A program made the position numbers and the translations under genes. DNA of 50,042 nt from a virus. Taxonomy: Duplodnaviria; Heunggongvirae; Uroviricota; Caudoviricetes. Of the stretch, positions 5,924-39,471 are shown piece by piece. Position 1 is the stretch's first letter. Each line of letters opens with the position of its first letter. The notes under the pieces were generated by a model. The model did no database searches, was not told the DNA's origin, and was given only the letters and a program-made list of their open reading frames with translations. The stretch lies in the IMG/VR virus record IMGVR_UViG_640753025_000001, positions 1-50,042 of that record; one strand, given 5' to 3'.

Positions 5924-6325
5924 AGGCGATACCGTTATTTGATAAGAAGTGAAGGTTTCCCAACTTTGAGTTGAGCGCCGGGGATATTTATTCCTGCTTT
6001 TAGTTGGTGTTTGATTGCCAGTTTGTCGGCTTTAATTGTTGTTTCAAACTCAACGTATTCTGGAGGAAGGGCGCTTGAGTCGATGATTTCTACAGTTTCT
6101 GACGGTTTGCGGATTGTTACCTGGTGAATACCTGCTCGAATCTTTTTCTTTCCAACCATTTCAAGCGATGACGCTATATACGTCATAATGCTATCAATCT
6201 TATTTTGAATTACTGCTGCTCTTTCATTCAGTGACTTTGCCTCTTCCTTGAGGCGTTCAGCATAACCATGAATCGCCACGGGTTTAACAGACACCTCAGA
6301 GTCATTTAAGATGGCTTAAAGAGAG

Positions 6326-6610
6326 GTGCCCATGAGCGGTAAGCGTTATCCCGAAGAGTTTAAAACTGAAGCAGTCAAACAGGTTGTTGATCGCGGTTAT
6401 TCTGTTGCCAGCGTTGCAACACGTCTCGATATCACCACCCACAGCCTTTATGCCTGGATAAAGAAGTACGGTCCGGATTCTTCCACTAATAAAGAACAGT
6501 CAGATGCTCAGGCCGAGATCCGCCGTCTCCAGAAAGAGCTGAAACGGGTTACCGACGAACGGGACATATTAAAAAAAGCCGCGGCGTACTTCGCAAAGCT
6601 GTCCGACTGA
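6326..6610 (+). CDS. IS3-family transposase OrfA (HTH)
   Basis: 94-aa ORF; A-run (TTAAAAAAAGCC) near 3' end consistent with a -1 frameshift site. Confidence 0.9.
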   Translation: MPMSGKRYPEEFKTEAVKQVVDRGYSVASVATRLDITTHSLYAWIKKYGPDSSTNKEQSDAQAEIRRLQKELKRVTDERDILKKAAAYFAKLSD

Positions 6611-6666
6611 GGTACGCCTTTATCCGTGACAACTCCTGTTGCTGGCCTGTTCGCCTGCTCTGTCGG

Positions 6667-7479
6667 GTGCTGGATGTTCATCCCAGTGGTTTTTACGCCT
6701 GGCTTCAGCAGCCGCATTCACAACGCCATCAGGCAGACCTGAGACTGACAGGACAGATTAAACAGTTCTGGCTGGAATCGGGATGCGTCTATGGTTATCG
6801 CAAAATCCATCTGGATTTGCGTGACAGCGGGCAACAGTGCGGAGTAAACAGAGTCTGGAGACTGATGAAACGTGTCGGAATAAAGGCTCAGGTCGGATAC
6901 CGAAGCCCGCGGGCACGTAAAGGCGAGGCCAGTATCGTGTCACCCAACAGGCTCCAGCGACAGTTCAATCCGGATGCTCCTGATGAGCGTTGGGTAACGG
7001 ACATAACCTACATCAGGACCCACGAAGGCTGGCTGTATCTTGCCGTTGTTGTTGATCTGTTCTCACGCAAAATTATCGGCTGGTCCATGCAATCCCGGAT
7101 GACAAAGGACATTGTCCTGAACGCACTGCTGATGGCTGTATGGCGGCGTAATCCCGAAAAACAGGTGCTGGTTCATTCGGATCAGGGCAGTCAGTACACA
7201 AGCCATGAGTGGCAGTCGTTCCTGAAATCACACGGCCTGGAGGGTAGCATGAGCCGTCGCGGTAACTGCCATGATAATGCGGTTGCAGAAAGTTTTTTCC
7301 AGTTGTTGAAACGTGAACGGATAAAGAAAAAGATCTACGGAACGCGGGAAGAAGCCCGCAGTGATATTTTTGATTACATCGAAATGTTTTATAACAGTAA
7401 GCGTCGGCATGGTTCTAGCGAACAGATGTCACCGACAGAATATGAAAACCAGTATTATCAACGGCTCGGAAGTGTCTAG
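6667..7479 (+). CDS. IS3-family transposase OrfB (DDE catalytic domain)
   Basis: 270-aa ORF from first Met; expected expression as OrfAB fusion by frameshift. Confidence 0.9.
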   Translation: MLDVHPSGFYAWLQQPHSQRHQADLRLTGQIKQFWLESGCVYGYRKIHLDLRDSGQQCGVNRVWRLMKRVGIKAQVGYRSPRARKGEASIVSPNRLQRQFNPDAPDERWVTDITYIRTHEGWLYLAVVVDLFSRKIIGWSMQSRMTKDIVLNALLMAVWRRNPEKQVLVHSDQGSQYTSHEWQSFLKSHGLEGSMSRRGNCHDNAVAESFFQLLKRERIKKKIYGTREEARSDIFDYIEMFYNSKRRHGSSEQMSPTEYENQYYQRLGSV

Positions 7480-7632
7480 ATTATCCGTGGCGATTCACCA
7501 GACTCATTTTTAATAATGGCAAGAAGTTGCTCTATTTTATCGGTAAATTCTCCTTCCATGCCTTCTATTGTGTCAGCAATCATCTCTGGCTCTAAATCTG
7601 AATCCATCAATTTTGCGTATTCATTGGCAATT

Positions 7633-8535
7633 TCATACAGTTTGCTCACTGGCAACCTCCAGTTTCGCTTTGCATTCTGCGTAAATGGCTTGTATGTTCT
7701 GCTGCAATTTCATTCCAGATGTCAGGCGATATGCTTCTGCAAAATATCTCTTCAAATCATCCATGTTTTCAGCCTGAGTCATTTCATCACAAAGAAGTTG
7801 TGCTTTTTCCATTATTTCCTGCTGGCGTTTCCGTTCATCTTCGCGGATATCTTCCTCTGATTTGTGCGGCATAACTGGTTCCTGATGCATACCTTCATCT
7901 TCGTTAAGCAGGTGAATGGCATTATCCAGTCGCTGGGCTTTAGGCCAGTATTTGCTGGCGCGTTTAACTATTGTTTTACGTGCCATCTCTTCCCAGAATG
8001 TTTTCCACGGTCCATTCTTTGCCTTGCTCGTTGCTTCCACAGCTTTAATTTCTGCCAGACTCATTTCTTCAGTCAGGTAGTCACCATCTGCTGTTTTAAC
8101 CGTACAATAACCACCAACAATAGAGCCTCGCTCACCAAATGCGTTGTATTTGTGGGTTGGTGCTGAATCAAGGCCATTTGATTCATAGGTGTCGTTTGAG
8201 TACACCAGTTTGCATTGCCCCCACTTAATTGATCCTGTCGATTGCGCAAGATGAAGTAACCCCATGTAACTGATATCAAGGCAAACCATGCCGTCGCGCG
8301 GAACCAGATAAGCCAGTTTGCTAGCCGGGTTTAAGGTGATACCGATCGCCGCAACATTGATGATGGCGTTCTGTGCGCTGGTTGGATTTGCCAGTGCCGT
8401 TTTAGCCAGGTAATCATTTTTCTGGAAATACTGAATTGCAAACTGGCTTTCCTTAGCCCATGTCACCGTCTGTTCAGTCAATGCTCCGCAGAATAACTGC
8501 TCCTGCTGTTTAACGAATTCAACGATATTGCTCAT
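7633..8535 (-). CDS. recT: recombinase RecT
   Basis: 300-aa ORF recognised as RecT family single-strand annealing protein. Confidence 0.88.
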   Translation of the reverse strand: MSNIVEFVKQQEQLFCGALTEQTVTWAKESQFAIQYFQKNDYLAKTALANPTSAQNAIINVAAIGITLNPASKLAYLVPRDGMVCLDISYMGLLHLAQSTGSIKWGQCKLVYSNDTYESNGLDSAPTHKYNAFGERGSIVGGYCTVKTADGDYLTEEMSLAEIKAVEATSKAKNGPWKTFWEEMARKTIVKRASKYWPKAQRLDNAIHLLNEDEGMHQEPVMPHKSEEDIREDERKRQQEIMEKAQLLCDEMTQAENMDDLKRYFAEAYRLTSGMKLQQNIQAIYAECKAKLEVASEQTV

Positions 8536-8843
8536 GCTGCTTCTCCATAAATGTGTCTGCGTTTGAATATTGCGAAGGCATATTCAGCCTTAACTCTTTC
8601 GTTTATTGCATCCCAGAACCATTCAGCGGCTTTTTCCTGATAGTTACAGTCATCATCTTCCAGCCAGTCGATAGCGTCCTTAGTGTGTTCATCTGGTTTA
8701 TATGAGCGAAGCATTTCGCTTATTGGGTCGCAACGTTTGCAGAGACGATCAACTTCACTGTTGATTCGTTCGTAATCTTCATCAGTAAAACTTGCGATTA
8801 TTTGCGATATTTCACGCTTATCATTCAGAGTCAGAATCATCAT
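8532..8843 (-). CDS. hypothetical phage protein
   Basis: 103-aa ORF overlapping recT start by 4 nt. Confidence 0.5.
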   Translation of the reverse strand: MMILTLNDKREISQIIASFTDEDYERINSEVDRLCKRCDPISEMLRSYKPDEHTKDAIDWLEDDDCNYQEKAAEWFWDAINERVKAEYAFAIFKRRHIYGEAA

Positions 8844-8924
8844 CTTTCTCCTGTTCTTTGTGCTGATTGAGCATTTTGTTCATCTGACGAATGAATTCTT
8901 CGTCTGACCAGTTATCTGTAAAAC

Positions 8925-9095
8925 TCATGGACGGCCTTGTTGTTTCAAAATATCCCAAATCTTTTCGAGCAAGCTTTTCATTCTTGGTTGTTTAAAGTCT
9001 GCTCCGGTTAGAATGTTTTTTCGTGAATGCTGTACCGATAAAATCGGGTTGAAAGGGCGAACCGATGCCGCCCCTGCAATAGCGAACTGTTGCAT
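8925..9095 (-). CDS. small hypothetical protein
   Basis: ATG at 9095 (MQQFAIAG) preceded by AAGGAG; ORF-track version extends further upstream. Confidence 0.35.
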   Translation of the reverse strand: MQQFAIAGAASVRPFNPILSVQHSRKNILTGADFKQPRMKSLLEKIWDILKQQGRP

Positions 9096-9170
9096 AGGAT
9101 GCTCCTTCTGTTTGATTGCATAACGAAAACGCCTCGAGTGAAGCGTTATTGGTATGCGGTAAAGCCGCAC

Positions 9171-9539
9171 TCAGGCGGCCTTGATAGTCATATCATCTGA
9201 ATCAAATATTCCTGATGTATCGATATCGGTAATTCTTATTCCTTCACTACCATCCATTGGAGGCCATCCTTCCTGACCATTTCCATCATTCCAGTCGAAC
9301 TCACACACAACACCATATGCATTTAAGTCGCTTGAAATTGCTATAAGCAGAGCATGTTGCGCTAGCATGATTAATACAGCATTTAATACAGAGCCGTGTT
9401 TTTTGAGTCTGTATTCAGAGTCTGACCAGAAATTATTAATCTGGTGAAGTTTTTCCTCTGTCATTACGTCATGGTCGATTTCAATTTCTATTGATGCTTT
9501 CCAGTCGTAATCAATGATGTATTTTTTGATGTTTGACAT
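9171..9539 (-). CDS. hypothetical phage protein
   Basis: 122-aa ORF. Confidence 0.5.
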   Translation of the reverse strand: MSNIKKYIIDYDWKASIEIEIDHDVMTEEKLHQINNFWSDSEYRLKKHGSVLNAVLIMLAQHALLIAISSDLNAYGVVCEFDWNDGNGQEGWPPMDGSEGIRITDIDTSGIFDSDDMTIKAA

Positions 9540-9721
9540 CTGTTCATATCCTCATAGATAAAAAATTGCACTCACATTGGAGGGCAAAGAAGATTTCCAA
9601 TAATCAGAACAAGTCGGCTCCTGTTTAGTTACGAGCGACATTGCTCCGTGTATTCACTCGTTGGAATGAATACACAGTGCAGTGTTTATTCTGTTGTTTA
9701 TGCCAAAAATGAAGGCCACCA

Positions 9722-9973
9722 TCAGGCAGCCTTGTTGTAAATGTTGCAGGTATCAAGTAAGTAATTAGATGGAGCGCCATAAATTATGAATTCATCGTTT
9801 GTCGGGTCCATCTCCATCTCTTGGCCTATTGCCATTCTTGCGTCAGTGTCATCAGCGGCGAAGCATAAAACAGCCCACGCACCCATTGTTTTAAAAAGAA
9901 CTGCAATTGGCTGTGGTTTTACTGAATTTGCGTTAGCGCGAAAATCATAAATCGCACTTTCATGAAATTCCAT
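9722..9973 (-). CDS. hypothetical phage protein
   Basis: 83-aa ORF. Confidence 0.45.
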   Translation of the reverse strand: MEFHESAIYDFRANANSVKPQPIAVLFKTMGAWAVLCFAADDTDARMAIGQEMEMDPTNDEFIIYGAPSNYLLDTCNIYNKAA

Positions 9974-10083
9974 ATATCACCTCAAATAAGTGGTTTGCTA
10001 CCTAATTTCATTTTCTGGCGACCAACACAAGTCACGCCCATTTCACTGCGTGGCTTGCGGTAGTAAATTAAGTTTGTTCAGAC

Positions 10084-10106
10084 AATAAAAAACCCACCGA
10101 AGTGGG
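10084..10106 (-). terminator. rho-independent terminator (tL-like)
   Basis: On minus strand: GC stem CCCAC/GTGGG with TTCG loop followed by T-run, just downstream of ORF 10107..10451. Confidence 0.5.
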
Positions 10107-10451
10107 CTATGACCATTTTTTATTTGGATTTCGTTGGTGAGCGTGATTAACAACTCTGTGCATGACATCCTCATATTTTTCATCTTCAATTTTTTCGACA
10201 TCGCGAGGAAATGGTGTTGCTAATGCTTTGTCAACTTTGTCCATTGGTTCTTCATTAATCTTATATTCAGGACCGTCATCTATAGCATTAAATCCAGGTG
10301 TTACACCGTTTTTTAATGCATATGCTATCCTTTTTTCCCATCTCGCTATTCTCCTCCTGTCTCGAGATGTAAGACCTCTATCAGATACTTTTCTGTTTTG
10401 TCCGCGGTCAGGATTAACATAAATAGTCTTTTTCACCATAAGCATACTCAA
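10107..10451 (-). CDS. hypothetical phage protein
   Basis: 114-aa ORF downstream of N. Confidence 0.5.
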   Translation of the reverse strand: MSMLMVKKTIYVNPDRGQNRKVSDRGLTSRDRRRIARWEKRIAYALKNGVTPGFNAIDDGPEYKINEEPMDKVDKALATPFPRDVEKIEDEKYEDVMHRVVNHAHQRNPNKKWS

Positions 10452-10753
10452 TAAGCACCGTACGGTAGTTTACTGTACAATTTTATTTTTTGGACTGCAT
10501 GTATTTTGTTTCCTAATGGGTTTGAATCTTTGTAATAAATACTTCTATTTTTTCGAACGACTTCTTCTTTCTTCTTGCAGCAAAGGCTTCCTAGTGATGC
10601 TGCTTTGTCTGCTCTGACGCAACCAGAGAGCTTTAGCGCAATTTTTCGCGCCAGTGCTTCATTACTGCGTCGCTCGGCAATAAGTTCTGCTCTGCGAGCT
10701 TTGTAGCGGCTTTTTGCCGTACCTTTGGATTCTTTCCAGACAATGGTTACCAT
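10448..10753 (-). CDS. N: N-like transcription antiterminator
   Basis: ATG at 10753 after AAGGAG; arginine-rich motif KSRYKARRAELIAERR near N-terminus; first gene of the leftward operon after nutL. Confidence 0.6.
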   Translation of the reverse strand: MVTIVWKESKGTAKSRYKARRAELIAERRSNEALARKIALKLSGCVRADKAASLGSLCCKKKEEVVRKNRSIYYKDSNPLGNKIHAVQKIKLYSKLPYGAY

Positions 10754-10863
10754 GATGGTCTCCTTTAAGTGGCTTTGGCGCATGACGCGTCGAGGTGCTT
10801 ATCTTCTCGATCGCTGTCTTGCAGCTGCAATTCGCGCCATCCCCAAAACCACTCAAGTTCTGG

Positions 10864-10903
10864 TCTCAACGGTTAGGTTGAGAGTCCGTCGATGTTAAAG
10901 AGC
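10864..10903 (-). promoter_or_regulatory. nutL-like site (boxA + boxB hairpin)
   Basis: Minus-strand GCTCTTTAAC (boxA) then hairpin TCTCAAC-CTAACC-GTTGAGA; loop CTAACC shared with nutR candidate. Confidence 0.45.
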
Positions 10904-11040
10904 CTGCCAATCTGTTCCGTTTGGCTTCCAGCGTCCTGCTGATGGCTTAAATTTAAGACTTCTTAATTTATTGGTCAAGTGCATTTTTGAAGAAAACTTA
11001 ATTTTATGGGCGTGAATTTAGTTTGTCTTTGATTTTTAAC

Positions 11041-11067
11041 GGGAAATAAAAAAGGGGCGAAAGCCCC
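11041..11067 (-). terminator. rho-independent terminator after repressor gene
   Basis: Hairpin GGGGCGAAAGCCCC with minus-strand T-run directly after the repressor stop. Confidence 0.6.
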
Positions 11068-11718
11068 TTAAGGAAGGTTTGCTAGCTTGGCATCAACGAC
11101 AACGCCAATGATTTTACAGTTCCCATTGATTTCAATCATTGGGTATTGTGGATTGAGTGGTTTCAGGAATTTTCTACCGGCATCAATAACTAACTTTTTG
11201 AATGTCGCCTCGTTTTCTCCTTCAAGTTTGGCGACTACCAGCTTTCCATTACGTGGTTCGACTTCTGGGTCGACGAGAATAATCATCCCCTCAGGAATAC
11301 TCAGTCCTGCCGGGGCAGTCATTGAATCGCCTTTAACGTCGAGCCAAAAAGAGTCTTCAGAACAATCTACCGTTGTGTCGTACCAGTTATCTATTGCACG
11401 CCTATGATATGGCTCTACAGCTTCCATCCAACATCCTGCGCTTACCCAACTAATTAGAGGATACGAACCTCTTGGATCATGCCTGCTGTGATAGGCAATG
11501 TTTGAAAGACTATCCTCTCCTTTCAACAGGTAATCAGGGGAGCACTGCAAAGCCTTGGCTAAGGCCAATAGGTTTTCGCCATTGGGCTCAGTTTCAGATC
11601 GCTCCCATTGGGAAATAGCAACATTAGACACGCCAACCATCTTGCCAAGGGCAGCCTGCCTAATCTTGAGTTCTTTTCTGCGAGCGCGAATACGCTCACC
11701 CATCAGTTGTGTATTCAT
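11068..11718 (-). CDS. c2: prophage repressor, P22 C2 / lambda CI type (HTH + S24 peptidase)
   Basis: 216-aa ORF; N-terminal HTH, C-terminal S24 domain with intact KGDSM Ser and FKKL Lys; recalled as near-identical to P22 C2. Confidence 0.88.
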   Translation of the reverse strand: MNTQLMGERIRARRKELKIRQAALGKMVGVSNVAISQWERSETEPNGENLLALAKALQCSPDYLLKGEDSLSNIAYHSRHDPRGSYPLISWVSAGCWMEAVEPYHRRAIDNWYDTTVDCSEDSFWLDVKGDSMTAPAGLSIPEGMIILVDPEVEPRNGKLVVAKLEGENEATFKKLVIDAGRKFLKPLNPQYPMIEINGNCKIIGVVVDAKLANLP

Positions 11719-11798
11719 AGTTAAGACATCTTAAATAAACTTGACTTAAGATTCCTTTGGTGGATAATTTAAGTGTTCTTTAATTTCGGAGCGAGTCT
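11719..11798. promoter_or_regulatory. divergent repressor/cro promoter-operator region
   Basis: TTGACT-N17-GATAAT promoter towards cro; several TTAAG/CTTAA half-site-like repeats; individual operators not resolved. Confidence 0.5.
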
Positions 11799-11984
11799 AT
11801 GTACAAAAAAGATGTTATTGACCACTTCGGAACCCAGCGTGCTGTTGCTAAAGCACTAGGCATTAGCGATGCAGCAGTCTCTCAGTGGAAAGAAGTTATC
11901 CCAGAGAAAGACGCCTATCGATTGGAAATCGTTACAGCTGGCGCCCTGAAGTATCAAGAAAGTGCTTACCGCCAAGCGGCATAA
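11799..11984 (+). CDS. cro: Cro
   Basis: 61-aa HTH protein divergent from the repressor. Confidence 0.85.
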   Translation: MYKKDVIDHFGTQRAVAKALGISDAAVSQWKEVIPEKDAYRLEIVTAGALKYQESAYRQAA

Positions 11985-11990
11985 GCAAAT

Positions 11991-12031
11991 TGCTCTTTAA
12001 CAGTTCTGGCCTTTCACCTCTAACCGGGTGA
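11991..12031 (+). promoter_or_regulatory. nutR-like site (boxA + boxB hairpin)
   Basis: TGCTCTTTAACAG (boxA) then hairpin TCACC-TCTAACCG-GGTGA just after cro. Confidence 0.45.
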
Positions 12032-12099
12032 GCAAACATCAGCGGCAAATCCATTGGGTGTGCCGCTATAACTCAATATCAATATAGGAAAATTAACAA

Positions 12100-12396
12100 A
12101 TGGCACAAGCAAGCTACAGCAAGCCAACACAGCGAGAAATTGATCGCGCTGAAACAGATTTACTCATCAACCTGTCAACGCTTACCCAGCGCGGTCTGGC
12201 AAAGATGATTGGCTGTCATGAATCGAAGATAAGCAGAACGGACTGGAGATTTATTGCTTCGGTCTTGTGTGCTTTCGGAATGGCATCAGACATCAGTCCG
12301 ATTAGCAGGGCTTTTAAGTATGCGCTTGATGAAATCACAAAGAAAAAATCCCCGGCTGCCACCGAGGATTTTAAGCAAATTGATATGCAATTCTGA
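12100..12396 (+). CDS. CII-like (P22 c1-type) transcriptional activator
   Basis: 98-aa HTH ORF in cII position. Confidence 0.65.
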
Positions 12397-12428
12397 GGGA
12401 ATTACTGGATCAATCCACAGGAGTAATT

Positions 12429-12575
12429 ATGACAAAACAACTCAGTCCTTACCAGGACAAAATTCACAAACACATACTACGTGATCGCTTCCTGTCCAGC
12501 TTCAAGCAGCCTGGTCGATTCCGGGCTGAGTTGGAAAAAGTGAAGCTGATGCAGAAGGAGAAAGGTCATGAGTAA
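12429..12575 (+). CDS. small hypothetical protein (48 aa)
   Basis: ATG at 12429 after AGGAG; stop overlaps O start; below ORF-track cutoff. Confidence 0.4.
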
Positions 12576-13467
12576 CATATCTAATCTAGCCGAAGCCAGA
12601 GAGGCCAGAAGGCTACAACAACCGCATCAAAGCAGCGGTAAGGGGTATGCCTTGCTGCACCGTAAAATTATGGATGTGCCGTTTTACAAGGACGCAGAAG
12701 CAGCGCATCTGTGGGTTCACTTAATCCTCAAAGCAAAGCATACGCCTGAGTATGTAATGACTGACGCAGGAGAAATTCTGGTAGGCAGAGGGAAGCTACT
12801 TGGCGGTAGAAACTCTCTGGCGTTTGAAACAGGACTCAAACCAGATCGCGTTCAGTACCTGCTTAGAAAGTTCAAAAAACTCGGCATGATTGACTGGGTT
12901 TCACACGGTAAATTCTCAGTTTTCTCGGTAGAGAAATATGACGATTATCAGTCAAATTTTGTACCAGCAGATTACCAGCAAATTACCACCTCAAAGCCAG
13001 CAATACCATTGCCTGTAAGCAATACTGTACCAGCAGATTACCAGCAAATTACCACAGATAAAGAATATAATAATATTATCTCTAATACTGACGTATTAGA
13101 GAGTGCCACAGCAGACAAAAAGTCTGACAAGAAAAAACCTTCCGTCAGCTGTCAGGATGTAGTCGATGCTTACCACGAAATCCTTCCTGAAGCGCCAAGA
13201 ATCCGCGCACTGAATGACAAGCGTAAAAACCAGATCCGAACGTTCTGGCGCAAAGCCGGAGTGATAACCCGCCAGCTTGACGGGCATGGGTTCACGATGC
13301 AGGACTGGAGAAATTATTTGAGCTACGTAGGCGAAAATTGCCGATGGATGTTCGAAGAACGCCCAAACCATCAACGCGGAACCGTCTGGCACAAAAAGGG
13401 ATTTGATTTCCTGCTTAACGATAATACCTACCTGAAAGTTCGTGAGGGTGAACACGATGACCGATAA
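12568..13467 (+). CDS. replication initiator (O-like) with internal iterons
   Basis: 299-aa ORF immediately upstream of helicase; contains repeated peptide [10 protein letters not shown] from the DNA iterons. Confidence 0.75.
12961..13055 (+). repeat. origin iterons: two 29-bp direct repeats
   Basis: GTACCAGCAGATTACCAGCAAATTACCAC at 12961..12989 and 13027..13055, each with internal ATTACCA repeat, followed by AT-rich stretch. Confidence 0.55.
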
Positions 13468-14893
13468 TTTTTATGCGCCGCCCCATAGCATCGAGGCAGA
13501 GCAGGCGGTGATTGGTGGATTGCTTCTGGATGATGACAGCAGTGAGCGCGTCCAGAAAGTTCTGGCGATGCTGAAGCCTGATTCATTTTACAGCCGACCA
13601 CACAAAATCATTTTCGAAGAAATAACCAGAATGCACCGGGAGCAAAAGCCAGTAGATGGCCTGACGCTTTTCGATGAACTGGAGCGTAAATCGTTAACGG
13701 CGTCTGTTGGCGGTTTTGCTTATATCGCTGAGATCGCAAAGAACACGCCAAGCGCCGCAAACATCGTTGCCTATGCAATGCAGGTTCGCGAAACCGCAAT
13801 GGAACGCTACGCCATCAACCGCATGACTGAAGCGACGGAATTGCTCTATTCCCGCAACGGAATGACTGCAACGCAGAAGTACGAAGCTATTCAGGCGATT
13901 TTCACGCAACTGACAGACCATGCAAAAACCGGATCGCGTCGCGGCCTTCGCTCATTTGGTGAGGTCATGGAAGACTGGGTTAGCGACCTTGAGAAGCGAT
14001 TTGACCCGTCAGGCGAACAACGAGGAATGAGCACAGGGATCCCATCTCTGGACAGGATGCTGTCACCGAAAGGTCTGGTGAAAGGCTCTCTGTTCGTCAT
14101 TGGCGCTCGCCCTAAGATGGGGAAAACGACGCTATACAGCCAGATGGCAATCAACTGCGCAGTGCATGAGAAAAAGCCCGCTCTGATGTTCAGTCTTGAA
14201 ATGCCTGGCGACCAGATACTGGAAAAGCTGGTAGGACAGAAGTCAGGTGTTAACCCGAATATTTTTTACCTTCCGGCGACAAATGACGCCGATGACGGCT
14301 ATCAGGGTGATTACGATGGTGACTTCAACAGGGCGATCGAAACAGCCAATCGCTTGAGTGAAATCGACATGCTTTACATCGACGACACGCCGGGATTATC
14401 TCTGGCTCAAATCGTCAGCGAAAGCCGTCGAATCAAGCGAGAAAAAGGATGTGTTGGCATGATTCTGGTCGATTACCTGACACTAATGACCGCTGAGAAG
14501 GCCGATCGCAACGACCTTGCTTACGGCATGATCACCAAAGGACTGAAGAACCTTGCCAAAGAGCTTGATTGCGTTGTTGTGCTTCTGACACAGCTTAACC
14601 GCGCACTGGAAAGCCGAACCAATAAACGCCCATTACCAAGTGACTCACGAGATACAGGGCAGATTGAACAGGATTGCGATTATTGGGTGGGGATCCATCG
14701 TGAAGGTGCTTTTGATGACAGTGTTCCACCTGGTGAAACCGAACTAATCCTTCGTCTCAATCGTCATGGCAATACCGGCACGGTGTATTGCATTCAGGCA
14801 AATGGCGCTATTTATGACACAGACCAACAGTCTGCTGAAATGCGCCGCCGTGAACGCGAGGAACCGCAATCCAAGAAGAAAGGAGGATTCTGA
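13457..14893 (+). CDS. replicative DNA helicase, DnaB-like
   Basis: Walker A GARPKMGKT and DnaB-type C-terminal domain; ATG at 13457 overlaps O stop. Confidence 0.9.
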   Translation: MTDNFYAPPHSIEAEQAVIGGLLLDDDSSERVQKVLAMLKPDSFYSRPHKIIFEEITRMHREQKPVDGLTLFDELERKSLTASVGGFAYIAEIAKNTPSAANIVAYAMQVRETAMERYAINRMTEATELLYSRNGMTATQKYEAIQAIFTQLTDHAKTGSRRGLRSFGEVMEDWVSDLEKRFDPSGEQRGMSTGIPSLDRMLSPKGLVKGSLFVIGARPKMGKTTLYSQMAINCAVHEKKPALMFSLEMPGDQILEKLVGQKSGVNPNIFYLPATNDADDGYQGDYDGDFNRAIETANRLSEIDMLYIDDTPGLSLAQIVSESRRIKREKGCVGMILVDYLTLMTAEKADRNDLAYGMITKGLKNLAKELDCVVVLLTQLNRALESRTNKRPLPSDSRDTGQIEQDCDYWVGIHREGAFDDSVPPGETELILRLNRHGNTGTVYCIQANGAIYDTDQQSAEMRRREREEPQSKKKGGF

Positions 14894-29743: not shown

Positions 29744-30696
29744 TGGCGGATTCGAATCTCAATGTGCCGGTAATCATTCAGGCTACACGGCTCGACACAT
29801 CAGTCCTTCCACGCAATATCTTCTCGCAGTCGTATCTGCTGTACGTTATCGCACAGGGCACTGATGTTGGTAACGTGGCTAACAAAGCCAACGAGGCCGG
29901 ACAGGGCGCTTATGATGCACAGGTCAGGAACGATGAGCAGGATGTCACCCTTGCAGACCATGAATCCAGAATTGAAGCTGCTGAAGCAACTCTCATCAAT
30001 CATGAACATAGAATTGCAGCAGCGGAAAGCACTCTTGCAGAACATGAAACAAGGATTACGGATGCTGAAACAGAGCTGGCTGATCACGAGACGCGAATTG
30101 CTGCCAATGAATCTGAGTTAGCAAACCATGATGCGCGCATAACTCAGAATACAGCCGATATCGACGCACTTGATACCAGGCTCACAGCGGCAGAGGGAAG
30201 TATTTCGACGCTACAAAGCACAGTTGGTGATCACTCAACAAGAATATCTGCGCTTGAGTATGCCACCACTCGCAAGAAATCAGAGGTTGTTTACTCTGGC
30301 GTATCTGTAACCATCCCGACAGCGCCGACCAACCTTGTTAGCCTGCTGAAAACGCTCACTCCGTCATCCGGCACGTTGGCACCATTCTTCGACACCGTTA
30401 ACAACAAGATGGTTGTGTTCAACGAGAACAAAACCCTGTTCTTCAAGCTGTCGATTGTCGGGACGTGGCCCAGTGGAACCGCCAACAGGTCAATGCAGCT
30501 AACCTTTTCCGGCTCTGTTCCTGACACACTGGTAAGCAGTCGCAACTCGGCGACAACGACCGATAACATCCTGTTAGCTACGTTCTTCAGCGTGGATAAA
30601 GACGGCTTTCTTGCCACAAATGGCAGCACGTTAACCATTCAGTCGAATGGTGCGGCGTTTACTGCCACAACCATCAAGATAATCGCGGAGCAGTAA
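29743..30696 (+). CDS. tail needle (P22 gp26-like) with extended C-terminal knob
   Basis: 317 aa; heptad array [49 protein letters not shown] then ~170-aa C-terminal domain. Confidence 0.8.
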
Positions 30697-31151
30697 TGAT
30701 TCAGTTCAAACCAACGCGAAACATCGACCTGATAGAAGCCGTGGGAAATCACCCCGACATTATCACCGGGAGCAACAACGGTGATGGATACGACTACAAG
30801 CCTGAATGCCGTTACTTCGAGGTGAACGTGCACGGGCAGTTCGGCGGCATTGTTTACTATCAGGAGATTCAGCCGCTGACATTCGATTGCCACGCCATGT
30901 ACCTGCCAGAGGTTCGTGGATTCAGCAAGGAAATCGGGCTGGCGTTCTGGCGATACATTCTGACTAACACCACCGTTCAGTGCGTAACATCGTTCGCTGC
31001 ACGCAAATTCCGCCACGGTCAGATGTACTGCGCAATGATTGGCCTTAAGCGTGTAGGAACAATCAAGAAATACTTCAAAGGCGTGGATGACGTGACTTTT
31101 TACAGCGCCACACGCGAAGAACTAATCGACTTCCTGAATCACGGGAGATAG
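30696..31151 (+). CDS. gp14-like head/tail assembly protein
   Basis: 151-aa ORF in gp14 position. Confidence 0.6.
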   Translation: MIQFKPTRNIDLIEAVGNHPDIITGSNNGDGYDYKPECRYFEVNVHGQFGGIVYYQEIQPLTFDCHAMYLPEVRGFSKEIGLAFWRYILTNTTVQCVTSFAARKFRHGQMYCAMIGLKRVGTIKKYFKGVDDVTFYSATREELIDFLNHGR

Positions 31152-31153
31152 CC

Positions 31154-31846
31154 ATGTTATATGCATTTAAGCTGGGCAGAAAACTGCGCGGCGAGGAACC
31201 TTATTGCCCTGAAAAAGGCGGGAAAGGTGGCAGTTCTGATAAAAGCGCAAAGTATGCAGCAGAAGCTCAGAAGTATGCCGCAGACCTGCAAAATCAGCAG
31301 TTCAACACCATCATGAACAACCTGAAGCCGTTTACTCCTCTGGCTGATAAGTATGTCGGCAGCCTCGAGAACTTATCGTCTCTGGAAGGGCAAGGTCAGG
31401 CACTTAACCAGTATTACAACTCTCAGCAGTATAAAGACCTTGCAGGTCAGGCTCGCTATCAGAGTCTGGCGGCAGCGGAAGCAACAGGTGGATTGGGTTC
31501 CACCGCAACCAGTAATCAGTTAGCAGCAATCGCACCAACGCTTGGTCAGCAATGGCTATCTGGACAAATGAACAATTACAACAACCTGGCAAATATCGGT
31601 CTTGGCGCTCTTCAGGGGCAGGCAAACGCCGGGCAAACATATGCCAACAACATGAGTCAGATTTCACAGCAAAGCGCGGCGCTGGCTGCGGCAAACGCCA
31701 ACCGACCGTCAGCATTGCAGCAGGGTGTTAGTGGTGCTGCATCCGGTGCGCTTTTGGGTGGTGGCATAGCCAGTGCTCTCGAGCTATCAACTCCGTGGGG
31801 TGCTGGTATTGGTGCTGGTCTTGGTCTGCTTGGTTCACTGTTTTAA
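31154..31846 (+). CDS. ejection protein (P22 gp7-like)
   Basis: 230 aa, Gly/Ala-rich C-terminus. Confidence 0.75.
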   Translation: MLYAFKLGRKLRGEEPYCPEKGGKGGSSDKSAKYAAEAQKYAADLQNQQFNTIMNNLKPFTPLADKYVGSLENLSSLEGQGQALNQYYNSQQYKDLAGQARYQSLAAAEATGGLGSTATSNQLAAIAPTLGQQWLSGQMNNYNNLANIGLGALQGQANAGQTYANNMSQISQQSAALAAANANRPSALQQGVSGAASGALLGGGIASALELSTPWGAGIGAGLGLLGSLF

Positions 31847-31856
31847 GGGGTAATCA

Positions 31857-33242
31857 ATGGCTACGTGGCAACAGGGTATTAATTCTGGTGGGTTTCTTGC
31901 TGGCATCGGTGCGCAAAATGAGAATGCGCCAAAGGCAAGCGACATTAACGCAACGCTTGGTCTGATCCGCGAAAACAATGAACTGGCTCGCTCAGGTGCA
32001 AATAACGTTGGTCTGACCGCGTTACGTGGTCTGGCTGGAGTTGCTGATATTTACAAGCAGGAACAGCAACAGAAAGCGATTAATGCGTTCAATAAGGTTC
32101 ATGCTGATGCATGGGCTTCTGGTGATCCATCGGGACTATTTAAGTTTGCCCAGGAAAATCCAGCGTTTGTTGCACAGGCACAACAGGCGTTTTCTGGTCT
32201 TAATGATCAGCAACGCAACGATATGGGCGATTTAGCCATGAGGGCTAACGTCGCTCTTTCTCAGGGACCGGAAGCCTACAGTAAATTCATTACTGACAAC
32301 AAGGACAGGTTAAATCGCGTTGGTGCTAATGCTGACTGGATGATTCAGACAGGTATCCAGAATCCAGAGCAGCTATCACACATGCTGACTACTATGTCTC
32401 TCGGTGCGCTTGGACCAGAAAAGGCGTTTGCTGTTCAGGATAAGATGGCTGGTCGTGAAATTGACCGAGGCAGGCTGGCAGAGACAATCCGCAGCAATCA
32501 GGCTGGCGAGGCACTTCAGGCGAGAGGGCAAAACCTTTCCTATCAGTCAGCAATGACTGGACACGGACTTGCAGCAGAAAGACTGGCACTTGATAAGCAG
32601 AAATTCGGTTTTGAAGTACAACAGGCACAAAAGAAGGCCGATGAACTTATTAATGCTGCGCCAAAACTATCCGTGAACATGGAAAAGGCTATAGAAAAAT
32701 CAGCAGGTGATGCGGCAGCTAGTCGTAATGCTGCCGATTCAATGACAACGCTTGCTGACACGCTTGAGAAGGAGAAGCCAACTCCTGGTTTGTTCGGTAA
32801 CGCTGAAAATATGTTCACTAAGCTTACGGGGCAAGATAACTACCTCCGAGATATGCGGATTAGATTCAACCAACTAGCCAATGCGCAGGCAACCAAGCTT
32901 CTCCCCCCCGGCCCTGCATCAGATAAGGATATTGAGTTTGCAAGGAAAGGCATTCCAAGCGAAACGGATAATCCAATGGTCATGGCTCGATGGTTAAGGG
33001 GTATGGCAAAAATGGAAAGTAATAACGCGAAGTTCAACGAGTTTAGGTCAGAGTGGATGAGTGCAAATGGCAGCCCAGGACAATCTGATCGCAACCGAAA
33101 CATCATGGGGATGGATGTTAAGAAGGGTGAATCATTGAACTCTGCGGCAAAACGTTTTCTTTCCTCAAGTTATGGCGATAGCCAACCTCAACAGCAATTG
33201 TCCGATGACGAATTAATTAGCAAATATCTCGGAGGGCAGTAA
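31857..33242 (+). CDS. ejection protein (P22 gp20-like)
   Basis: 461-aa ORF in gp20 position. Confidence 0.75.
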
Positions 33243-35068
33243 TGGCCTATAGTCGTGAACAGTTGATGACGGCGTTAAGGAATGCTGATGCTGCCGGCGA
33301 TACTGAGGGGGCACGTCGCATTGCTCAGATGCTGTCTTCTGGTGATCAATCCACTCAAAACCAATCGCAGCCAGAAGAACAATCTCTGGTGGGAAAAGCT
33401 ACTGACTGGCTCACTGGTGGTCAAAGTGCAGGGCAAATTGCAGAACAGGCTGGCCGTGGTCTGGTAAACATACCATTTGACGTATTGCAGGGTGGCGCAA
33501 GTCTGATTAATGCAATCAGCCAGGGTCTTGGTGGCCCCAAGGTTTTGGATGATGTTTATCGTCCAGTAGATCGACCAACAGACCCTTATGCGCAAGCTGG
33601 AGAAACAATTGGCGGGTATTTAGTTCCAGGAGTTGGAACGGCAGGAAGCATGGCTATTGGATCACTGGCAGAGGCCGCAAATCAGAAAGGCGATTTCGCA
33701 CAAAATGCAGCCAAAAATGCCGGAGTTAACCTTGCCGCTCAGGGTGTTCTTTCCGCAGCAGCAAAGGGAATAGGGCGTGGAATAACGGCTATAAAAGGTG
33801 ATATTGCGCCAGAAGTGGCGAAGAAAATTGCCACATCAGAATCGATGGGCGTGACACCAATGACATCTGATGTTATCCCGCCGAAAAATGCTTTCACTCG
33901 TGGCCTTACTCAGGATGCCGAGGGGGCTTTGCTCGGGACAGGCTCAAAGAGAGCGGAGCAATATGCAACGCGTAGTAAACTGGTAAGCAATTATTTTGAC
34001 CGTTTTGGTGAGTACAACCCTGATGATGTGGTGAAATCTCTTACCACCACGTTAAGGGGGCGGAAGGATGCCGCTGGCGCTGTTATCAATGACGTCACCA
34101 ATAAAATGGGTAATGCCGCAGTTGATACCACAAATACCATGAATGCTCTGAATACAGCGATCGCAAGACAGGAACGGCTTGGGACGTCTGCCAATCAAAG
34201 CCTGCTTACATCCTTGCGTAACCTACGTGAAGAATTAGCAAACCCTGCAACTGATTTGGATGTTACGTTTGATCTCTTGCGTCAGCACAGAACAGCATTT
34301 AGATCTAATGTTCAGGGAGATGCTATGGTCTTCCCCAACCAGGCAAAAGCAGCTACCAATATGGTAGAGAATGCAATGTCAAAAGACCTTCGTAACGCAG
34401 TTGCTAAAAACCTCGGTGCATCAGACGCAGCAAAATACCTTAAAGCAAATTCCGATTATGCAAACGTTTATAATAAGGTGCTTAATAAAAACATTGCCAA
34501 CAAGCTCAACAAGGCAAGCAGTGAAGCCAGTCCTGAACTTATAAATACCGTTGTATTAAGCAGAAAACCATCTGACGTGAAACGAATCTGGAGCGCACTG
34601 GATGATAAAGGGAAAGATGCTATGCGTGCAGCTTACGTCAGCAAAATAGCGGAAAAGGCCGGCGACTCTCCAGCCAAGTTCATCACTGAAGTTAATAAGC
34701 TGAAATCTCAGTCAGGAGGTGAAATTTACAACACTATTTTTTCTGGAAAGCACATGAAAGAACTTGATGCTCTTAATGAAGTTCTACAGCAAACAGCAAG
34801 GTCAGACACCGCAAATGTAGTAACTCAGACGGGGCAATCGCAAGCCAACAGGATAAGGACGATTGGCGCAACTGCGACTCTTGGCGTATCAATGGGGCTT
34901 GAGGCTGGTTTCGGTGCAATGATGCGCTTGTATGAGTCCAAAGCAGCAAGGAATGCGCTCTTACGTCTGGCAAACACTAAAGCTGGAACGCCAGCCTATG
35001 AAAGAGCGCTGAATAACGCCGCAAATGCCATCAGACCAATACTTGCCAATGATGCAACTGATCGCTAA
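33242..35068 (+). CDS. ejection protein (P22 gp16-like)
   Basis: 608-aa ORF in gp16 position. Confidence 0.8.
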
Positions 35069-35089
35069 GGGTTGATGTCATGGATGTTG

Positions 35090-35728
35090 TTAATTGCGAA
35101 TGGAATCGCGGAACTCTTTGCTTGATAGAAAAGGATCTGTTCTCCTTAACTCATCATAGTTTTTATTAAACTTTCTTGCTTCACCTGGGTATCTGTTGAA
35201 CAAAACATTGCAGAAAAAAGAGAGCAATAACTCACATATGAATGCTAATACCCTGAAAAATAAAGGTATAAAAAGAAGGGAAGGTTCATTGAAGTCTCTA
35301 TTCCAAACAAAATAGACAATCATCCCGACATACCAAATTGATATCCCTATACTGATGATTGTTCCAACAGAGGTAACTACGATCCCGATTAAGTCGGACA
35401 GTCTGTTTGCCAGTAACTCATTTGAGTATCTTGCAATCATATACCGCCAACATTTTGCAATATCATCCTGATCTGTAGAGTCTTCTGGAATAGCTAGGCT
35501 TCTACATATTGAAGTAGCTCTTTTTTTCTCAACTCTTTTTGAGATCCATCCATTAAAGAGATACATCAACACCTGCGTTGCTATTCCTGCACCAAGTGAT
35601 ATCAAAGACATCCCCAAAAATCTCCATCCTGGAGATAGTGACTGGTACTGCCAAACAAAAAAAATTAAAAAACCCAATGAGCCTATGACATAGGCTGATG
35701 TATCGCTATATATATCTATTTTTTTCAT
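35090..35728 (-). CDS. membrane protein in sieA position (putative superinfection exclusion)
   Basis: ATG at 35728 (MKKIDIYSD) after AAGGAG; about four hydrophobic segments; AT-rich gene between gp16 and the immI-like region. Confidence 0.55.
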   Translation of the reverse strand: MKKIDIYSDTSAYVIGSLGFLIFFVWQYQSLSPGWRFLGMSLISLGAGIATQVLMYLFNGWISKRVEKKRATSICRSLAIPEDSTDQDDIAKCWRYMIARYSNELLANRLSDLIGIVVTSVGTIISIGISIWYVGMIVYFVWNRDFNEPSLLFIPLFFRVLAFICELLLSFFCNVLFNRYPGEARKFNKNYDELRRTDPFLSSKEFRDSIRN

Positions 35729-35792
35729 TGAGTAGCCACTCCTTAGTTTTGAGCAGAACACCGGATGATAATGTGTCGCTTCCTAAAGGATA

Positions 35793-36434
35793 TCAAAGCA
35801 ACGGGATTTCAAGGTAAACTGCGGTTGCCAAAATACTAACATCTTCATTTCTAACAAGAATATTAGGATACATTGGGTTTAGGGATACTAAGTTTGTCTC
35901 TATTTCACCAATGTAAACCTGCTTGAAGCTCAATATTTGCTCTTTATCCAATGATGCTATTACATAATCTTTGCTTTTAGCTTTTACTAGAGGGCTGAAC
36001 GTGACAACTGATCCTCTGGGAAAGCTAATACCTGAACTTGTAGTCATAGCTTCACCTTCAATAGTCAATGCAAATGCAGAGTCACCAACATTGTATATTG
36101 CCGGATGAAATCTAGACGATGAATGTTCACCTGTGTTTAGGTAATGCATAACTTCATCTAGTTTGAGGATTGGTATTTGCTTTACCAGAACGTCAGGCAT
36201 GACGTTTTTTGTTCCAGGCCCCTGACCTTCACCCAGAGCTAACCACTCAGCCGTAGTGCCTAATGCGTTGGCTAATGCCTGCAATACACGAAGCCGTGGT
36301 TTAGCCTCACCACCCTCGTATGCAGCTATTTGACGTTGAACAACACCAGCTAATTTTGACAACTGCGCCTGCGTCATACCCCTGGACTGTCTTGCCAGAG
36401 ATACTCTTGATGGGAATTGATCGTCAAAATTCAT
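35793..36434 (-). CDS. second CI-like repressor (HTH + S24-like domain, Ser to Ala at nucleophile)
   Basis: 213 aa; HTH GMTQAQLSKLAGV; C-terminal domain aligns to CI/C2 but has GEAM (Ala129, codon 36048..36050) where CI/C2 have GNSM/GDSM. Confidence 0.8.
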   Translation of the reverse strand: MNFDDQFPSRVSLARQSRGMTQAQLSKLAGVVQRQIAAYEGGEAKPRLRVLQALANALGTTAEWLALGEGQGPGTKNVMPDVLVKQIPILKLDEVMHYLNTGEHSSSRFHPAIYNVGDSAFALTIEGEAMTTSSGISFPRGSVVTFSPLVKAKSKDYVIASLDKEQILSFKQVYIGEIETNLVSLNPMYPNILVRNEDVSILATAVYLEIPLL

Positions 36435-36455
36435 TAGTTCACCATAAAAAATTCA

Positions 36456-36484
36456 TTGACTCATACTGAGTGTGAGTGAATAAT
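36456..36484 (+). promoter_or_regulatory. Pant-like promoter for arc-ant operon
   Basis: TTGACT - 17 bp - AATAAT; spacer holds tandem TGAGTGTGAGTG. Confidence 0.5.
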
Positions 36485-36532
36485 CAAACTACAAAAAGTG
36501 AGATTATGAGTTTTTCAAAAACAGGAGTGCAT

Positions 36533-36706
36533 AATGACTGAAAAGATATCTTCCATCAAGCCGCGTCAGGTTCGTTTTACAGAAAAGGTTGATTCACATA
36601 TCCGCGAATCAGCAAAAAGATGCCATAGGTCAATTCAGGCAGAGATAGCTTATCGAATGGAGTTATTGATGAAACTTGAGGCAAAGGGCGATGTTGTCAT
36701 CCAATA
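36533..36706 (+). CDS. arc: Arc-like ribbon-helix-helix repressor
   Basis: 57 aa; RQVRFTEKVDSHIRESAKRCHRSIQAEIAYRM fits Arc/Mnt pattern; below ORF-track cutoff. Confidence 0.65.
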
Positions 36707-36780
36707 AAAATAGTGAAGCCCGGCAGTGCGCGAACACAAACCGGGCCTCTATGTCAGTAACCGTATGCAAGGAAACTAAC

Positions 36781-37407
36781 ATGAATATTGTAGCAAAATC
36801 AGATTACAACTTCCACGGAGTTGAGTTGGTGCCCACCCGTGATATGCATGGTGTTTGGTTTACATCATCTAATATTGCATCTGCACTTAAATATGCAAAT
36901 AGCCGTGCAGTAACAATGATTTATAACAAGTATAGCGATGAGTTTAGCGCCGGAATGACTCAGGTACTCGAAGTGAGTACCTCAGGAAATTATCGCAAAA
37001 AAGTGCGAGTTTTCTCACTACGCGGTGCCCACCTAATCGCGATGTTTGCTCGCACTCCGGTAGCCAAAGAGTTCCGCCGCTGGGTGCTGGATATTTTGGA
37101 TCGGCAGGCAGAATGCTCACCGATTGCAAAACAGTTTACTGACGAAGAACTGGTTAATCTCTGCTACTTACAATTGTGGATGGAGAAGAGTCAACAAATG
37201 TGCAAACACATCTACCCAGGAATGAAGCAAATTGGTTCTGAGCTTTCAGGAAGAATTTACGATATTGCATATGAGACTCGCTATATGTCAGAAGAAACCA
37301 AGAAATCACTTCTTCGTGAAATGAAGAATCTTGATACCAACAATTTTGTCGTAAAGAACGCTCAGCCAATGCTGACAAAACTGCGCGGCGAGGAATGGAT
37401 TCATTGA
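36781..37407 (+). CDS. ant: antirepressor (Bro-N domain)
   Basis: ATG at 36781 after AAGGAA; N-terminal domain (HGVELVPTRDMHGVWFTS...) resembles phage antirepressor N-domain. Confidence 0.7.
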   Translation: MNIVAKSDYNFHGVELVPTRDMHGVWFTSSNIASALKYANSRAVTMIYNKYSDEFSAGMTQVLEVSTSGNYRKKVRVFSLRGAHLIAMFARTPVAKEFRRWVLDILDRQAECSPIAKQFTDEELVNLCYLQLWMEKSQQMCKHIYPGMKQIGSELSGRIYDIAYETRYMSEETKKSLLREMKNLDTNNFVVKNAQPMLTKLRGEEWIH

Positions 37408-38143
37408 TTGGTGCGCCGGACGGCGCAAAAAGAAAACCGCCAGTGTGCTGCTGGCGGCCTATGTCACACCCTTACTACCACATAAGGAATGCCTAATGAC
37501 TTTGAAGAATGTAGCAAACATCGGATCCGTTGTCACGGATAAAACCATTGACAGCCAAAGTCTTCTGATGATGGTTAATGAAGCTCGCAAGTTATGTGGA
37601 GAGCCATCAGTACGTAACAACAAATTCATCGAGAAAATTGAGGATGAATTGGAGGGCGAGACCTACACAAAAAGTGTAGGTCGGAAAAACGGGGCTGACA
37701 TTGATGTTATCTCCATGACTATCAAGCAGGCGCTTCGTGTTGCTGCTCGCGAATCTAAAGCAGTTCGCCGAACACTTGTAGACAAACTTGAAAGTATGCA
37801 AGAAGCGCACATTAAAAGCGGTAAATCGTCGAGTGGACTTGTTGAGTATCGCCAGGCTCGAACATTGAAAATGACGGTTGAAGCTGTTACCAATCTGTTA
37901 GATTTGATGCCAAATCTTGCGCCGGAAGCAAAGCAGACTGCGGCAGCAAGCATAATCAACCCGATAGTTGGTTTTAATGCAATACCTCTTCCAGCAATAG
38001 AAGAGCATTACTACTCAGCAGGGGAGGTTGCAGAGCAGCTTGGAGTAACGGCAAACAAGATTGGTCGCATTGCTAACGCAAACAACTGAATCGCCACGGG
38101 TTTAACAGACACCTCAGAGTCATTTAAGATGGCTTAAAGAGAG

Positions 38144-38428
38144 GTGCCCATGAGCGGTAAGCGTTATCCCGAAGAGTTTAAAACTGAAGCAGTCAAACAG
38201 GTTGTTGATCGCGGTTATTCTGTTGCCAGCGTTGCAACACGTCTCGATATCACCACCCACAGCCTTTATGCCTGGATAAAGAAGTACGGTCCGGATTCTT
38301 CCACTAATAAAGAACAGTCAGATGCTCAGGCCGAGATCCGCCGTCTCCAGAAAGAGCTGAAACGGGTTACCGACGAACGGGACATATTAAAAAAAGCCGC
38401 GGCGTACTTCGCAAAGCTGTCCGACTGA
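38144..38428 (+). CDS. IS3-family transposase OrfA
   Basis: Identical protein to 6326..6610. Confidence 0.9.
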   Translation: MPMSGKRYPEEFKTEAVKQVVDRGYSVASVATRLDITTHSLYAWIKKYGPDSSTNKEQSDAQAEIRRLQKELKRVTDERDILKKAAAYFAKLSD

Positions 38429-38484
38429 GGTACGCCTTTATCCGTGACAACTCCTGTTGCTGGCCTGTTCGCCTGCTCTGTCGG

Positions 38485-39297
38485 GTGCTGGATGTTCATC
38501 CCAGTGGTTTTTACGCCTGGCTTCAGCAGCCGCATTCACAACGCCATCAGGCAGACCTGAGACTGACAGGACAGATTAAACAGTTCTGGCTGGAATCGGG
38601 ATGCGTCTATGGTTATCGCAAAATCCATCTGGATTTGCGTGACAGCGGGCAACAGTGCGGAGTAAACAGAGTCTGGAGACTGATGAAACGTGTCGGAATA
38701 AAGGCTCAGGTCGGATACCGAAGCCCGCGGGCACGTAAAGGCGAGGCCAGTATCGTGTCACCCAACAGGCTCCAGCGACAGTTCAATCCGGATGCTCCTG
38801 ATGAGCGTTGGGTAACGGACATAACCTACATCAGGACCCACGAAGGCTGGCTGTATCTTGCCGTTGTTGTTGATCTGTTCTCACGCAAAATTATCGGCTG
38901 GTCCATGCAATCCCGGATGACAAAGGACATTGTCCTGAACGCACTGCTGATGGCTGTATGGCGGCGTAATCCCGAAAAACAGGTGCTGGTTCATTCGGAT
39001 CAGGGCAGTCAGTACACAAGCCATGAGTGGCAGTCGTTCCTGAAATCACACGGCCTGGAGGGTAGCATGAGCCGTCGCGGTAACTGCCATGATAATGCGG
39101 TTGCAGAAAGTTTTTTCCAGTTGTTGAAACGTGAACGGATAAAGAAAAAGATCTACGGAACGCGGGAAGAAGCCCGCAGTGATATTTTTGATTACATCGA
39201 AATGTTTTATAACAGTAAGCGTCGGCATGGTTCTAGCGAACAGATGTCACCGACAGAATATGAAAACCAGTATTATCAACGGCTCGGAAGTGTCTAG
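38485..39297 (+). CDS. IS3-family transposase OrfB
   Basis: Identical protein to 6667..7479. Confidence 0.9.
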   Translation: MLDVHPSGFYAWLQQPHSQRHQADLRLTGQIKQFWLESGCVYGYRKIHLDLRDSGQQCGVNRVWRLMKRVGIKAQVGYRSPRARKGEASIVSPNRLQRQFNPDAPDERWVTDITYIRTHEGWLYLAVVVDLFSRKIIGWSMQSRMTKDIVLNALLMAVWRRNPEKQVLVHSDQGSQYTSHEWQSFLKSHGLEGSMSRRGNCHDNAVAESFFQLLKRERIKKKIYGTREEARSDIFDYIEMFYNSKRRHGSSEQMSPTEYENQYYQRLGSV

Positions 39298-39471
39298 ATT
39301 ATCCGTGGCGATTCAAACCTCAAAACTGAGCAGTACGGGAAGTTCTTCCTGGATAAATCGGCGCATTCCAGCAAACAGGTAGAGGCGTTCCGTTACAATT
39401 CTGAAGGCGTTAAAGCACTACAACACCTGCTACATGGCTCAAATGTGGCGTAACATTTTATAATGAAAACT

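Follow-up and report, generated by a model that had tools for sequence, protein, structure and literature searches.

The DNA analysed here (the window, 50,042 bp, IMG/VR record IMGVR_UViG_640753025_000001) carries a P22-like prophage, φHS4 of Escherichia coli HS, in which two copies of an insertion sequence (IS) of the IS3 family, called A and B below, lie in direct orientation. The window is 100% identical to the E. coli HS chromosome NZ_CP185286.1 from position 1023010 onward. The two elements, the triplets next to them and the pieces of the two genes that they split are located as follows, where an empty site is the same place in a relative that lacks the IS:

5935..6268, minus strand: 3' fragment of a Sipho_Gp157 / 'Mu Gam-like end protection' gene, split by copy A
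6266..6268, no strand: left target-site duplication of A, CCA; a single CCA in the empty site of strain ETEC1701
6269..7497, plus strand: IS copy A, a complete 1229-bp ISEhe3-like IS3-family element with orfA at 6332-6610, an A7G run at 6571-6578 and orfB (-1 frame) ending at 7479
7498..7500, no strand: right target-site duplication of A, CCA; a single CCA in the ETEC1701 empty site
7498..7649, minus strand: 5' fragment of the Gp157 gene, directly downstream of recT (7633-8535, minus strand); its reading frame continues into the IS for six foreign codons before a stop
37496..38086, plus strand: 5' part (197 codons) of an anti-repressor-family gene (phrog_1726), whose stop codon is formed by the first three IS bases, TGA
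38084..38086, no strand: left target-site duplication of B, AAC; a single AAC in the empty site of relatives
38087..39315, plus strand: IS copy B, identical to A, with orfA at 38150-38428, the A7G run at 38389-38396 and orfB ending at 39297
39316..39318, no strand: right target-site duplication of B, AAC; a single AAC in the empty site of relatives
39319..39453, plus strand: orphaned 3' part of the anti-repressor-family gene, 44 codons and a stop

In a string comparison copies A and B agreed at 1229 of 1229 bases, and in an alignment that included 30 nt of flanking DNA on each side (6239-7527 against 38057-39345) the identity broke exactly at both ends of the element. The initial annotation of this DNA had described the copies as identical and as bracketing 30.6 kb in direct orientation, and both statements hold: the alignment shows no nucleotide differences, both copies are on the plus strand, a repeat finder places their starts 31,818 bp apart, and 30,589 bp lie between them.

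Copies A and B were inserted independently, each in a simple event that duplicated 3 bp of the target. Matching triplets on both sides of an element are expected by chance with a probability of 1/64 per copy, and the stronger evidence comes from the empty sites, which we reconstructed as 600 bp, one triplet and a further 600 bp and searched against 5,426 complete E. coli genomes. In E. coli ETEC1701 the whole 1,200 bp of the empty site of copy A are matched at 100% identity, the junction reading ...CATAACCAGACTC... with one CCA, and the site is contiguous at about 98% in many other strains. The empty site of copy B is contiguous at 93-97% identity in several strains, and in GF4 and 30821_1#330 its junction reads ...GCAAACAACCTCAAAAC... 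with one AAC. Furthermore, removal of the IS together with one triplet results in an intact open reading frame (ORF) at both places, of 160 amino acids at site A and of 241 amino acids at site B. Since the 3-bp duplications are genuine, the empty sites are single-copy and the reading frames are restored, A and B have to be regarded as simple insertions that occurred independently. The different triplets CCA and AAC had already been proposed as target duplications and read as a sign of two separate transposition events; the single triplets in the relatives prove them to be real duplications, and the two events are supported by a matched duplication for each copy together with the empty sites.

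The ETEC1701 sequence that provides the empty site A belongs to a lambdoid prophage at another locus, adjoining ybhC, which has the recT-Gp157 module in common with the prophage of the window at 100% identity. The early-left operon of this ETEC1701 prophage also contains an IS3-family element, but another one.

The gene interrupted by copy A belongs to the leftward early operon, and its reconstructed product of 160 amino acids matches PF05565 at 1.2e-36 and PHROG 253, 'Mu Gam-like end protection'. As its match to the Pfam family Phage_Mu_Gam stays below the cutoff, the term 'Gam-like' is used here on the basis of the PHROG label only. PDB sequence searches with the reconstructed Gp157 protein, as well as with the OrfAB transposase described below, returned nothing informative. 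The gene interrupted by copy B encodes 241 amino acids when restored, matches phrog_1726 at 2.4e-100 and is cut after codon 197. The immI region has two anti-repressor-like genes, and the one hit by copy B is the second; the first, with Bro-N and P22_AR_C domains, is intact. The truncated allele that copy B has produced is also present in the original HS genome CP000802.1, and the pseudogenes at both sites as well as both elements are already annotated in RefSeq. Copy A knocks out a Gp157/Gam-like accessory gene next to recT, and copy B truncates the second anti-repressor-like gene. None of the essential genes for morphogenesis, replication or lysis is hit, in agreement with the inducibility and virion production published for φHS4. 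The only pseudogene of the prophage that is not caused by an IS is a DUF550 fragment (3977-4102, minus strand) in the early-left accessory region near the int end.

All defining features of the IS3 family that can be tested in a sequence are present in the element. Its length of 1229 bp falls within the 1.2-1.5 kb of the family and its ends are TG...CA; the left inverted repeat (IRL) begins TGAATCGCCACGG..., the complement of the right inverted repeat (IRR) is identical to it over 13 of 13 terminal bases, and over 38 nt the complementarity of the repeats is about 74%. The two overlapping reading frames encode OrfA (6332-6610, 92 amino acids), with a helix-turn-helix (HTH) domain of the type HTH_Tnp_1 (PF01527, 1.8e-19), and OrfB in the -1 frame, with HTH_21 (PF13276) and the catalytic domain rve (PF00665; 1.4e-33). 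With the NCBIfam model NF033516 (transpos_IS3) we obtained a score of 338.6 bits against a cutoff of 160. A -1 shift at the A-rich slippery A7G run (6571-6578) leads to a predicted OrfAB of 382 amino acids with an rve/DDE domain, and RefSeq annotates an IS3-family transposase with a programmed frameshift. The target duplication of 3 bp also lies within the range of 3-5 bp. Judged from their sequence both elements are complete, identical and potentially active.

IS911, IS2 and IS3 are the members of the family that have been studied experimentally, and they transpose by a copy-out/paste-in route through a circular intermediate. The element of φHS4 resembles them in the HTH-containing OrfA, the -1 frameshift to OrfAB on an A-rich heptamer, the rve/DDE core and the short target duplications, whereas the circle-based route was studied in these relatives and is transferred to our element by homology only. 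By analogy with them, -1 frameshifting would yield the OrfAB transposase, which might copy the element out as a circle and paste this circle into a new site.

By convention, an isoform has to show at least 95% nucleotide identity to the ISfinder reference of an element. The closest named relative that we reached is a copy annotated as ISEhe3 in Shigella phage SfIV, with a full-length match (1228-1229 bp) of 88.8% identity, and the element in φHS4 may formally be a distinct named relative and not an isoform. The two agree in length class, TG...CA ends, the two-ORF frameshift layout and the 3-bp duplication and differ in the 88.8% identity, a comparison that covers the SfIV copy and not the ISfinder reference itself. 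ISEhe3 (accession AF327445) belongs to the IS51 group of the IS3 family with duplications of 3-4 bp and was first described on plasmid pPATH of Pantoea agglomerans (PMC10425158). The full-length HS genome contains about 12 chromosomal matches to the element. Identical copies were also found in many unrelated E. coli strains, on chromosomes as well as on plasmids, and relatives of 87-100% identity occur across plasmids of Enterobacterales.

The host of both insertions is a P22-like prophage integrated at thrW of the commensal E. coli HS. Its ends and the part enclosed by the two IS copies are:

1399..1450, plus strand: attL, 3' end of the tRNA-Thr(CGT) gene thrW (1369-1444), repeated at attR
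7498..38086, no strand: prophage interior between the IS copies, 30,589 bp, with recT at one end, sieA and the anti-repressor genes at the other, and immunity, replication, nin, lysis and head/DNA-transfer genes in between
43256..43307, plus strand: attR, 52-nt repeat of the thrW 3' end, 51 of 52 positions identical

From att to att the prophage measures 41,857 bp, or 39,393 bp without both IS copies. Its gene order is canonical for P22-like phages, with int, xis, early-left accessory genes, recT, cI, cro, cII, replication, nin, Q and lysis genes in the first half, followed by terminase, portal, scaffold, P22-type coat, gp4, gp10, needle, ejection proteins, sieA, immI and tailspike. The assignment to this group is based on the att repeats at thrW, a coat protein of the P22 family, gp4, gp10, gp16, SieA, P22_AR_C, Arc and a tailspike with a head-binding domain. 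A scan with Rfam found tRNA only.

The name φHS4 comes from a 2026 preprint (bioRxiv 10.64898/2026.05.19.726188), which describes a mitomycin C-inducible prophage of about 41.9 kb that is packaged in podovirus particles and of which cured derivatives are readily recovered. The prophage in the window corresponds to it in being P22-like, in its size of about 41.9 kb, in the CI repressor with a LexA-like domain and in its inducibility by mitomycin C. As far as the searchable text and supplements of this preprint go, insertion sequences were masked for the coverage analysis and the IS3 insertions and the genes hit by them are not discussed; neither the insertions nor the 60-kb deletion described below are mentioned there.

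Several further features of the prophage can be added. Within a replication-initiator-like gene (12568-13467) there are two clusters of 11-bp iteron-like repeats (TACCAGCAnAT; 12955-13059), 66 bp apart, which are likely to represent a lambdoid-type origin. The immI region (35090-36434, minus strand) contains a gene of the SieA family and, in place of P22 mnt, a second LexA-like repressor gene (HTH_3 and Peptidase_S24). An Arc-family gene (39480-39767, minus strand) adjoins the tailspike gene.

The right end of φHS4 contains an integrase gene fragment (42834-42968, minus strand). Directly after attR follows a second integrase gene (43466-44674), which heads a tandem thrW island (43426-48870) with an HsdM-family methyltransferase, a zinc-ribbon protein and a hypothetical gene, then an IS1 and, outside the window, the brxA-L operon of a BREX-1 system. 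The fragment in φHS4 and the integrase gene of the island share a 67-nt inverted repeat of 75% complementarity (42857-42923 and 44551-44617), a scar that former tandem integrations at thrW have probably left behind. The IS1 copy (49071-49768, minus strand) lies at the right-hand end of the window, beside a frameshifted pseudogene.

As identical direct copies, A and B offer 1.2-kb substrates for homologous recombination, and together with a third direct copy that starts 60 kb downstream of A they render the region prone to deletion. A crossover between A and B (A×B) would, as computed, remove 31,818 bp and leave a remnant of 10,039 bp. The lost segment would span the 5' fragment of the Gp157 gene, recT and all that follows as far as the second anti-repressor gene; to the left of the single remaining IS would be attL, int, xis, the early-left accessory genes and the Gp157 3' fragment, and to its right the anti-repressor 3' fragment, arc, tailspike and attR. 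We searched for this form with a query of 1 kb left of A, the IS and 1 kb right of B, and found the recombinant junction in none of the 5,426 complete E. coli genomes at a coverage of at least 80%. The initial annotation had expected that recombination between A and B would delete the segment from recT to ant and leave int/xis and the tailspike end; the endpoints are essentially right, but the deleted form is absent from these genomes and the event on record is a different one, between A and the third copy.

This third copy, C, is an identical direct IS at 1089454-1090682 of NZ_CP185286.1, thus outside the window, and starts 60,176 bp downstream of the start of A. It is flanked by GTT and CTG and has no target duplication. 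On its left lies a yagK-like 'inovirus Gp2' island gene and on its right a truncated ecpA and then ecpR, and these flanks are contiguous in no E. coli genome searched. With such flanks, copy C marks an older IS-associated deletion junction with loss of ecpA-E and neighbouring DNA, and it shows that in the ancestry of HS the element has rearranged this region on at least one earlier occasion.

The recorded event was found in NZ_CP092639.1 (GCF_022453605.1), an assembly of HS from Zurich that serves as HS reference in several recent preprints. There, the left flank of A is followed by one IS and then by the truncated fimbrial gene ecpA and ecpR, and the 5 kb on each side of this IS are identical to the left flank of A and to the right flank of C, respectively. 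The stock behind this assembly thus carries an A×C recombinant. It lacks 60,176 bp, from the start of A to the start of C (1029278 to 1089453 of NZ_CP185286.1), and with them φHS4 from recT to attR, the neighbouring thrW island and all of the BREX-1 system. As expected for an A×C event, two IS matches are lost (10 instead of 12); the chromosome is 61,772 bp shorter (4,581,764 against 4,643,536 bp), and 1,596 bp of this difference are not accounted for by the A×C deletion. With a clean hybrid junction and 60 kb absent from a deposited complete chromosome, a real deletion is the simplest explanation, a collapse during assembly being another possible one. RecA-dependent homologous recombination may have been the route to this deletion. 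Deletions between direct IS copies are a textbook phenomenon in enterobacterial chromosomes; the hybrid IS in NZ_CP092639.1 and copy C are in line with it, with the difference that the A×B event itself was not observed.

How the pair A and B came about can be judged from these data. Two identical direct IS copies that bracket a DNA segment have the geometry of a composite transposon, and the pair had been called composite-transposon-like in the initial annotation. The resemblance is real but ends there: a unit that had moved to its present place as a whole should be enclosed by a duplication of its own, yet the outer flanks are CCA on the left of A and AAC on the right of B, and it is each single IS that has a duplication. 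Likewise, the bracketed DNA is simply the colinear interior of a P22-like prophage with int/xis and the tailspike outside of the pair, and each of the interrupted genes is restored by removal of a single IS. The unit was found at no other place, as the junctions of the left flank of A with the IS and of the IS with the right flank of B occur in only three records among the 5,426 genomes, all of them from HS. We therefore regard a past movement of the pair with its 30.6 kb as practically excluded, which does not concern the future: a mobilisation from A to B as a unit is possible and would need the IRL of A and the IRR of B to act across 33 kb. An artefact of assembly is an equally negligible explanation. 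IS copies are a classic source of misassembly, and short-read contigs in Logan indeed end exactly at the IS border, but the junctions recur in the independent complete assemblies CP000802.1, NZ_CP185286.1 and NZ_CM173443.1, the left junction of A is present in NZ_CP092639.1 as well, and the six places shown for the truncated anti-repressor allele ending on the TGA of the IS include contigs of at least five different sequencing runs.

The identity of A and B and their proximity on the chromosome could also suggest that one copy was derived from the other by a rearrangement, be it a segmental duplication, an intramolecular replicative transposition or a recombination between two prophages. Intramolecular replicative events and recombination between IS copies leave mismatched flanks, however, while A and B each have a matched 3-bp duplication and an empty site, so that such an origin is very improbable. 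What a rearranged copy looks like is exemplified by C with its flanks GTT and CTG that are contiguous in no genome, and the fact that C looks rearranged and A and B do not reinforces the view of the latter as untouched simple insertions. We also considered local hopping or clustering of the element, with three of the about 12 copies lying within 61.4 kb; as 0.115 such triples are expected by chance, this is not significant. We are thus highly confident that two separate simple insertions of an ISEhe3-like IS into φHS4 have taken place, the direct copies now being substrates for recombination. Nothing contradicts this reading, and the points that weigh against it are limits only: the A×B junction is absent from the genomes searched, the A×C deletion is documented by one deposited assembly, the clustering of the three copies within 61.4 kb is only suggestive, and, with identical copies so widespread, the identity of A and B neither dates nor orders the insertions, nor does it point to a donor copy.

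It could be asked whether the insertions are neutral or were selected because loss of the Gam-like Gp157 protein, of the second anti-repressor or of both tames the prophage, either by less spontaneous induction or by non-infectious virions. The targets, a recombination/end-protection accessory gene and an anti-repressor-family gene, would fit such a role, as would the finding that φHS4 virions form plaques neither on HS and cured HS nor on K-12 or ECOR1-72, as stated in the preprint (bioRxiv 10.64898/2026.05.19.726188). Its authors, however, propose receptor loss or DuoHS as explanations of the missing plaques. Selection lacks comparative or experimental evidence and both insertions are private to HS; furthermore, IS copies survive where they are harmless, and accessory genes are just where survivors are expected. 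We therefore consider selection unlikely.

An oversized φHS4 genome was also considered. The measured headful of P22 is 43,400 ± 650 bp (PMC8402733), so that 41,857 bp would leave about 1.5 kb of terminal redundancy if the headful of φHS4 is P22-like, and the idea is not supported. As a speculation, which we rate as rather doubtful, the knock-out of the Gam-like Gp157, possibly together with the 2,464 bp of DNA gained by the insertions that would take up about 60% of the spare headful capacity, could explain the missing plaques, and the array of A, B and C could be a recurrent deletion hot spot at thrW. If true, the three-copy array would give rise to HS subpopulations or stocks without φHS4 and BREX, as seen in NZ_CP092639.1.

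IS copies inside prophages are textbook knowledge, and the feature described here, although real, is of a well-known kind and already annotated in a genome that has been public since 2007-2008. Our analysis adds the identification of the ISEhe3-like IS, of φHS4 and of the target genes; it also rejects a composite transposition, finds no A×B form in the genomes searched and documents the A×C deletion with its loss of BREX. As a discovery this matters little, and its value is that of a practical note for those who use φHS4 or HS stocks. Native φHS4 is not a wild-type phage, as IS copies disrupt both the Gp157/Gam-like gene and one of the anti-repressor genes. Likewise, HS stocks are not equivalent for work on phage defence, because the one represented by NZ_CP092639.1 has lost most of φHS4 and all of BREX-1, together 60 kb with the DNA between them, via a crossover between A and C.

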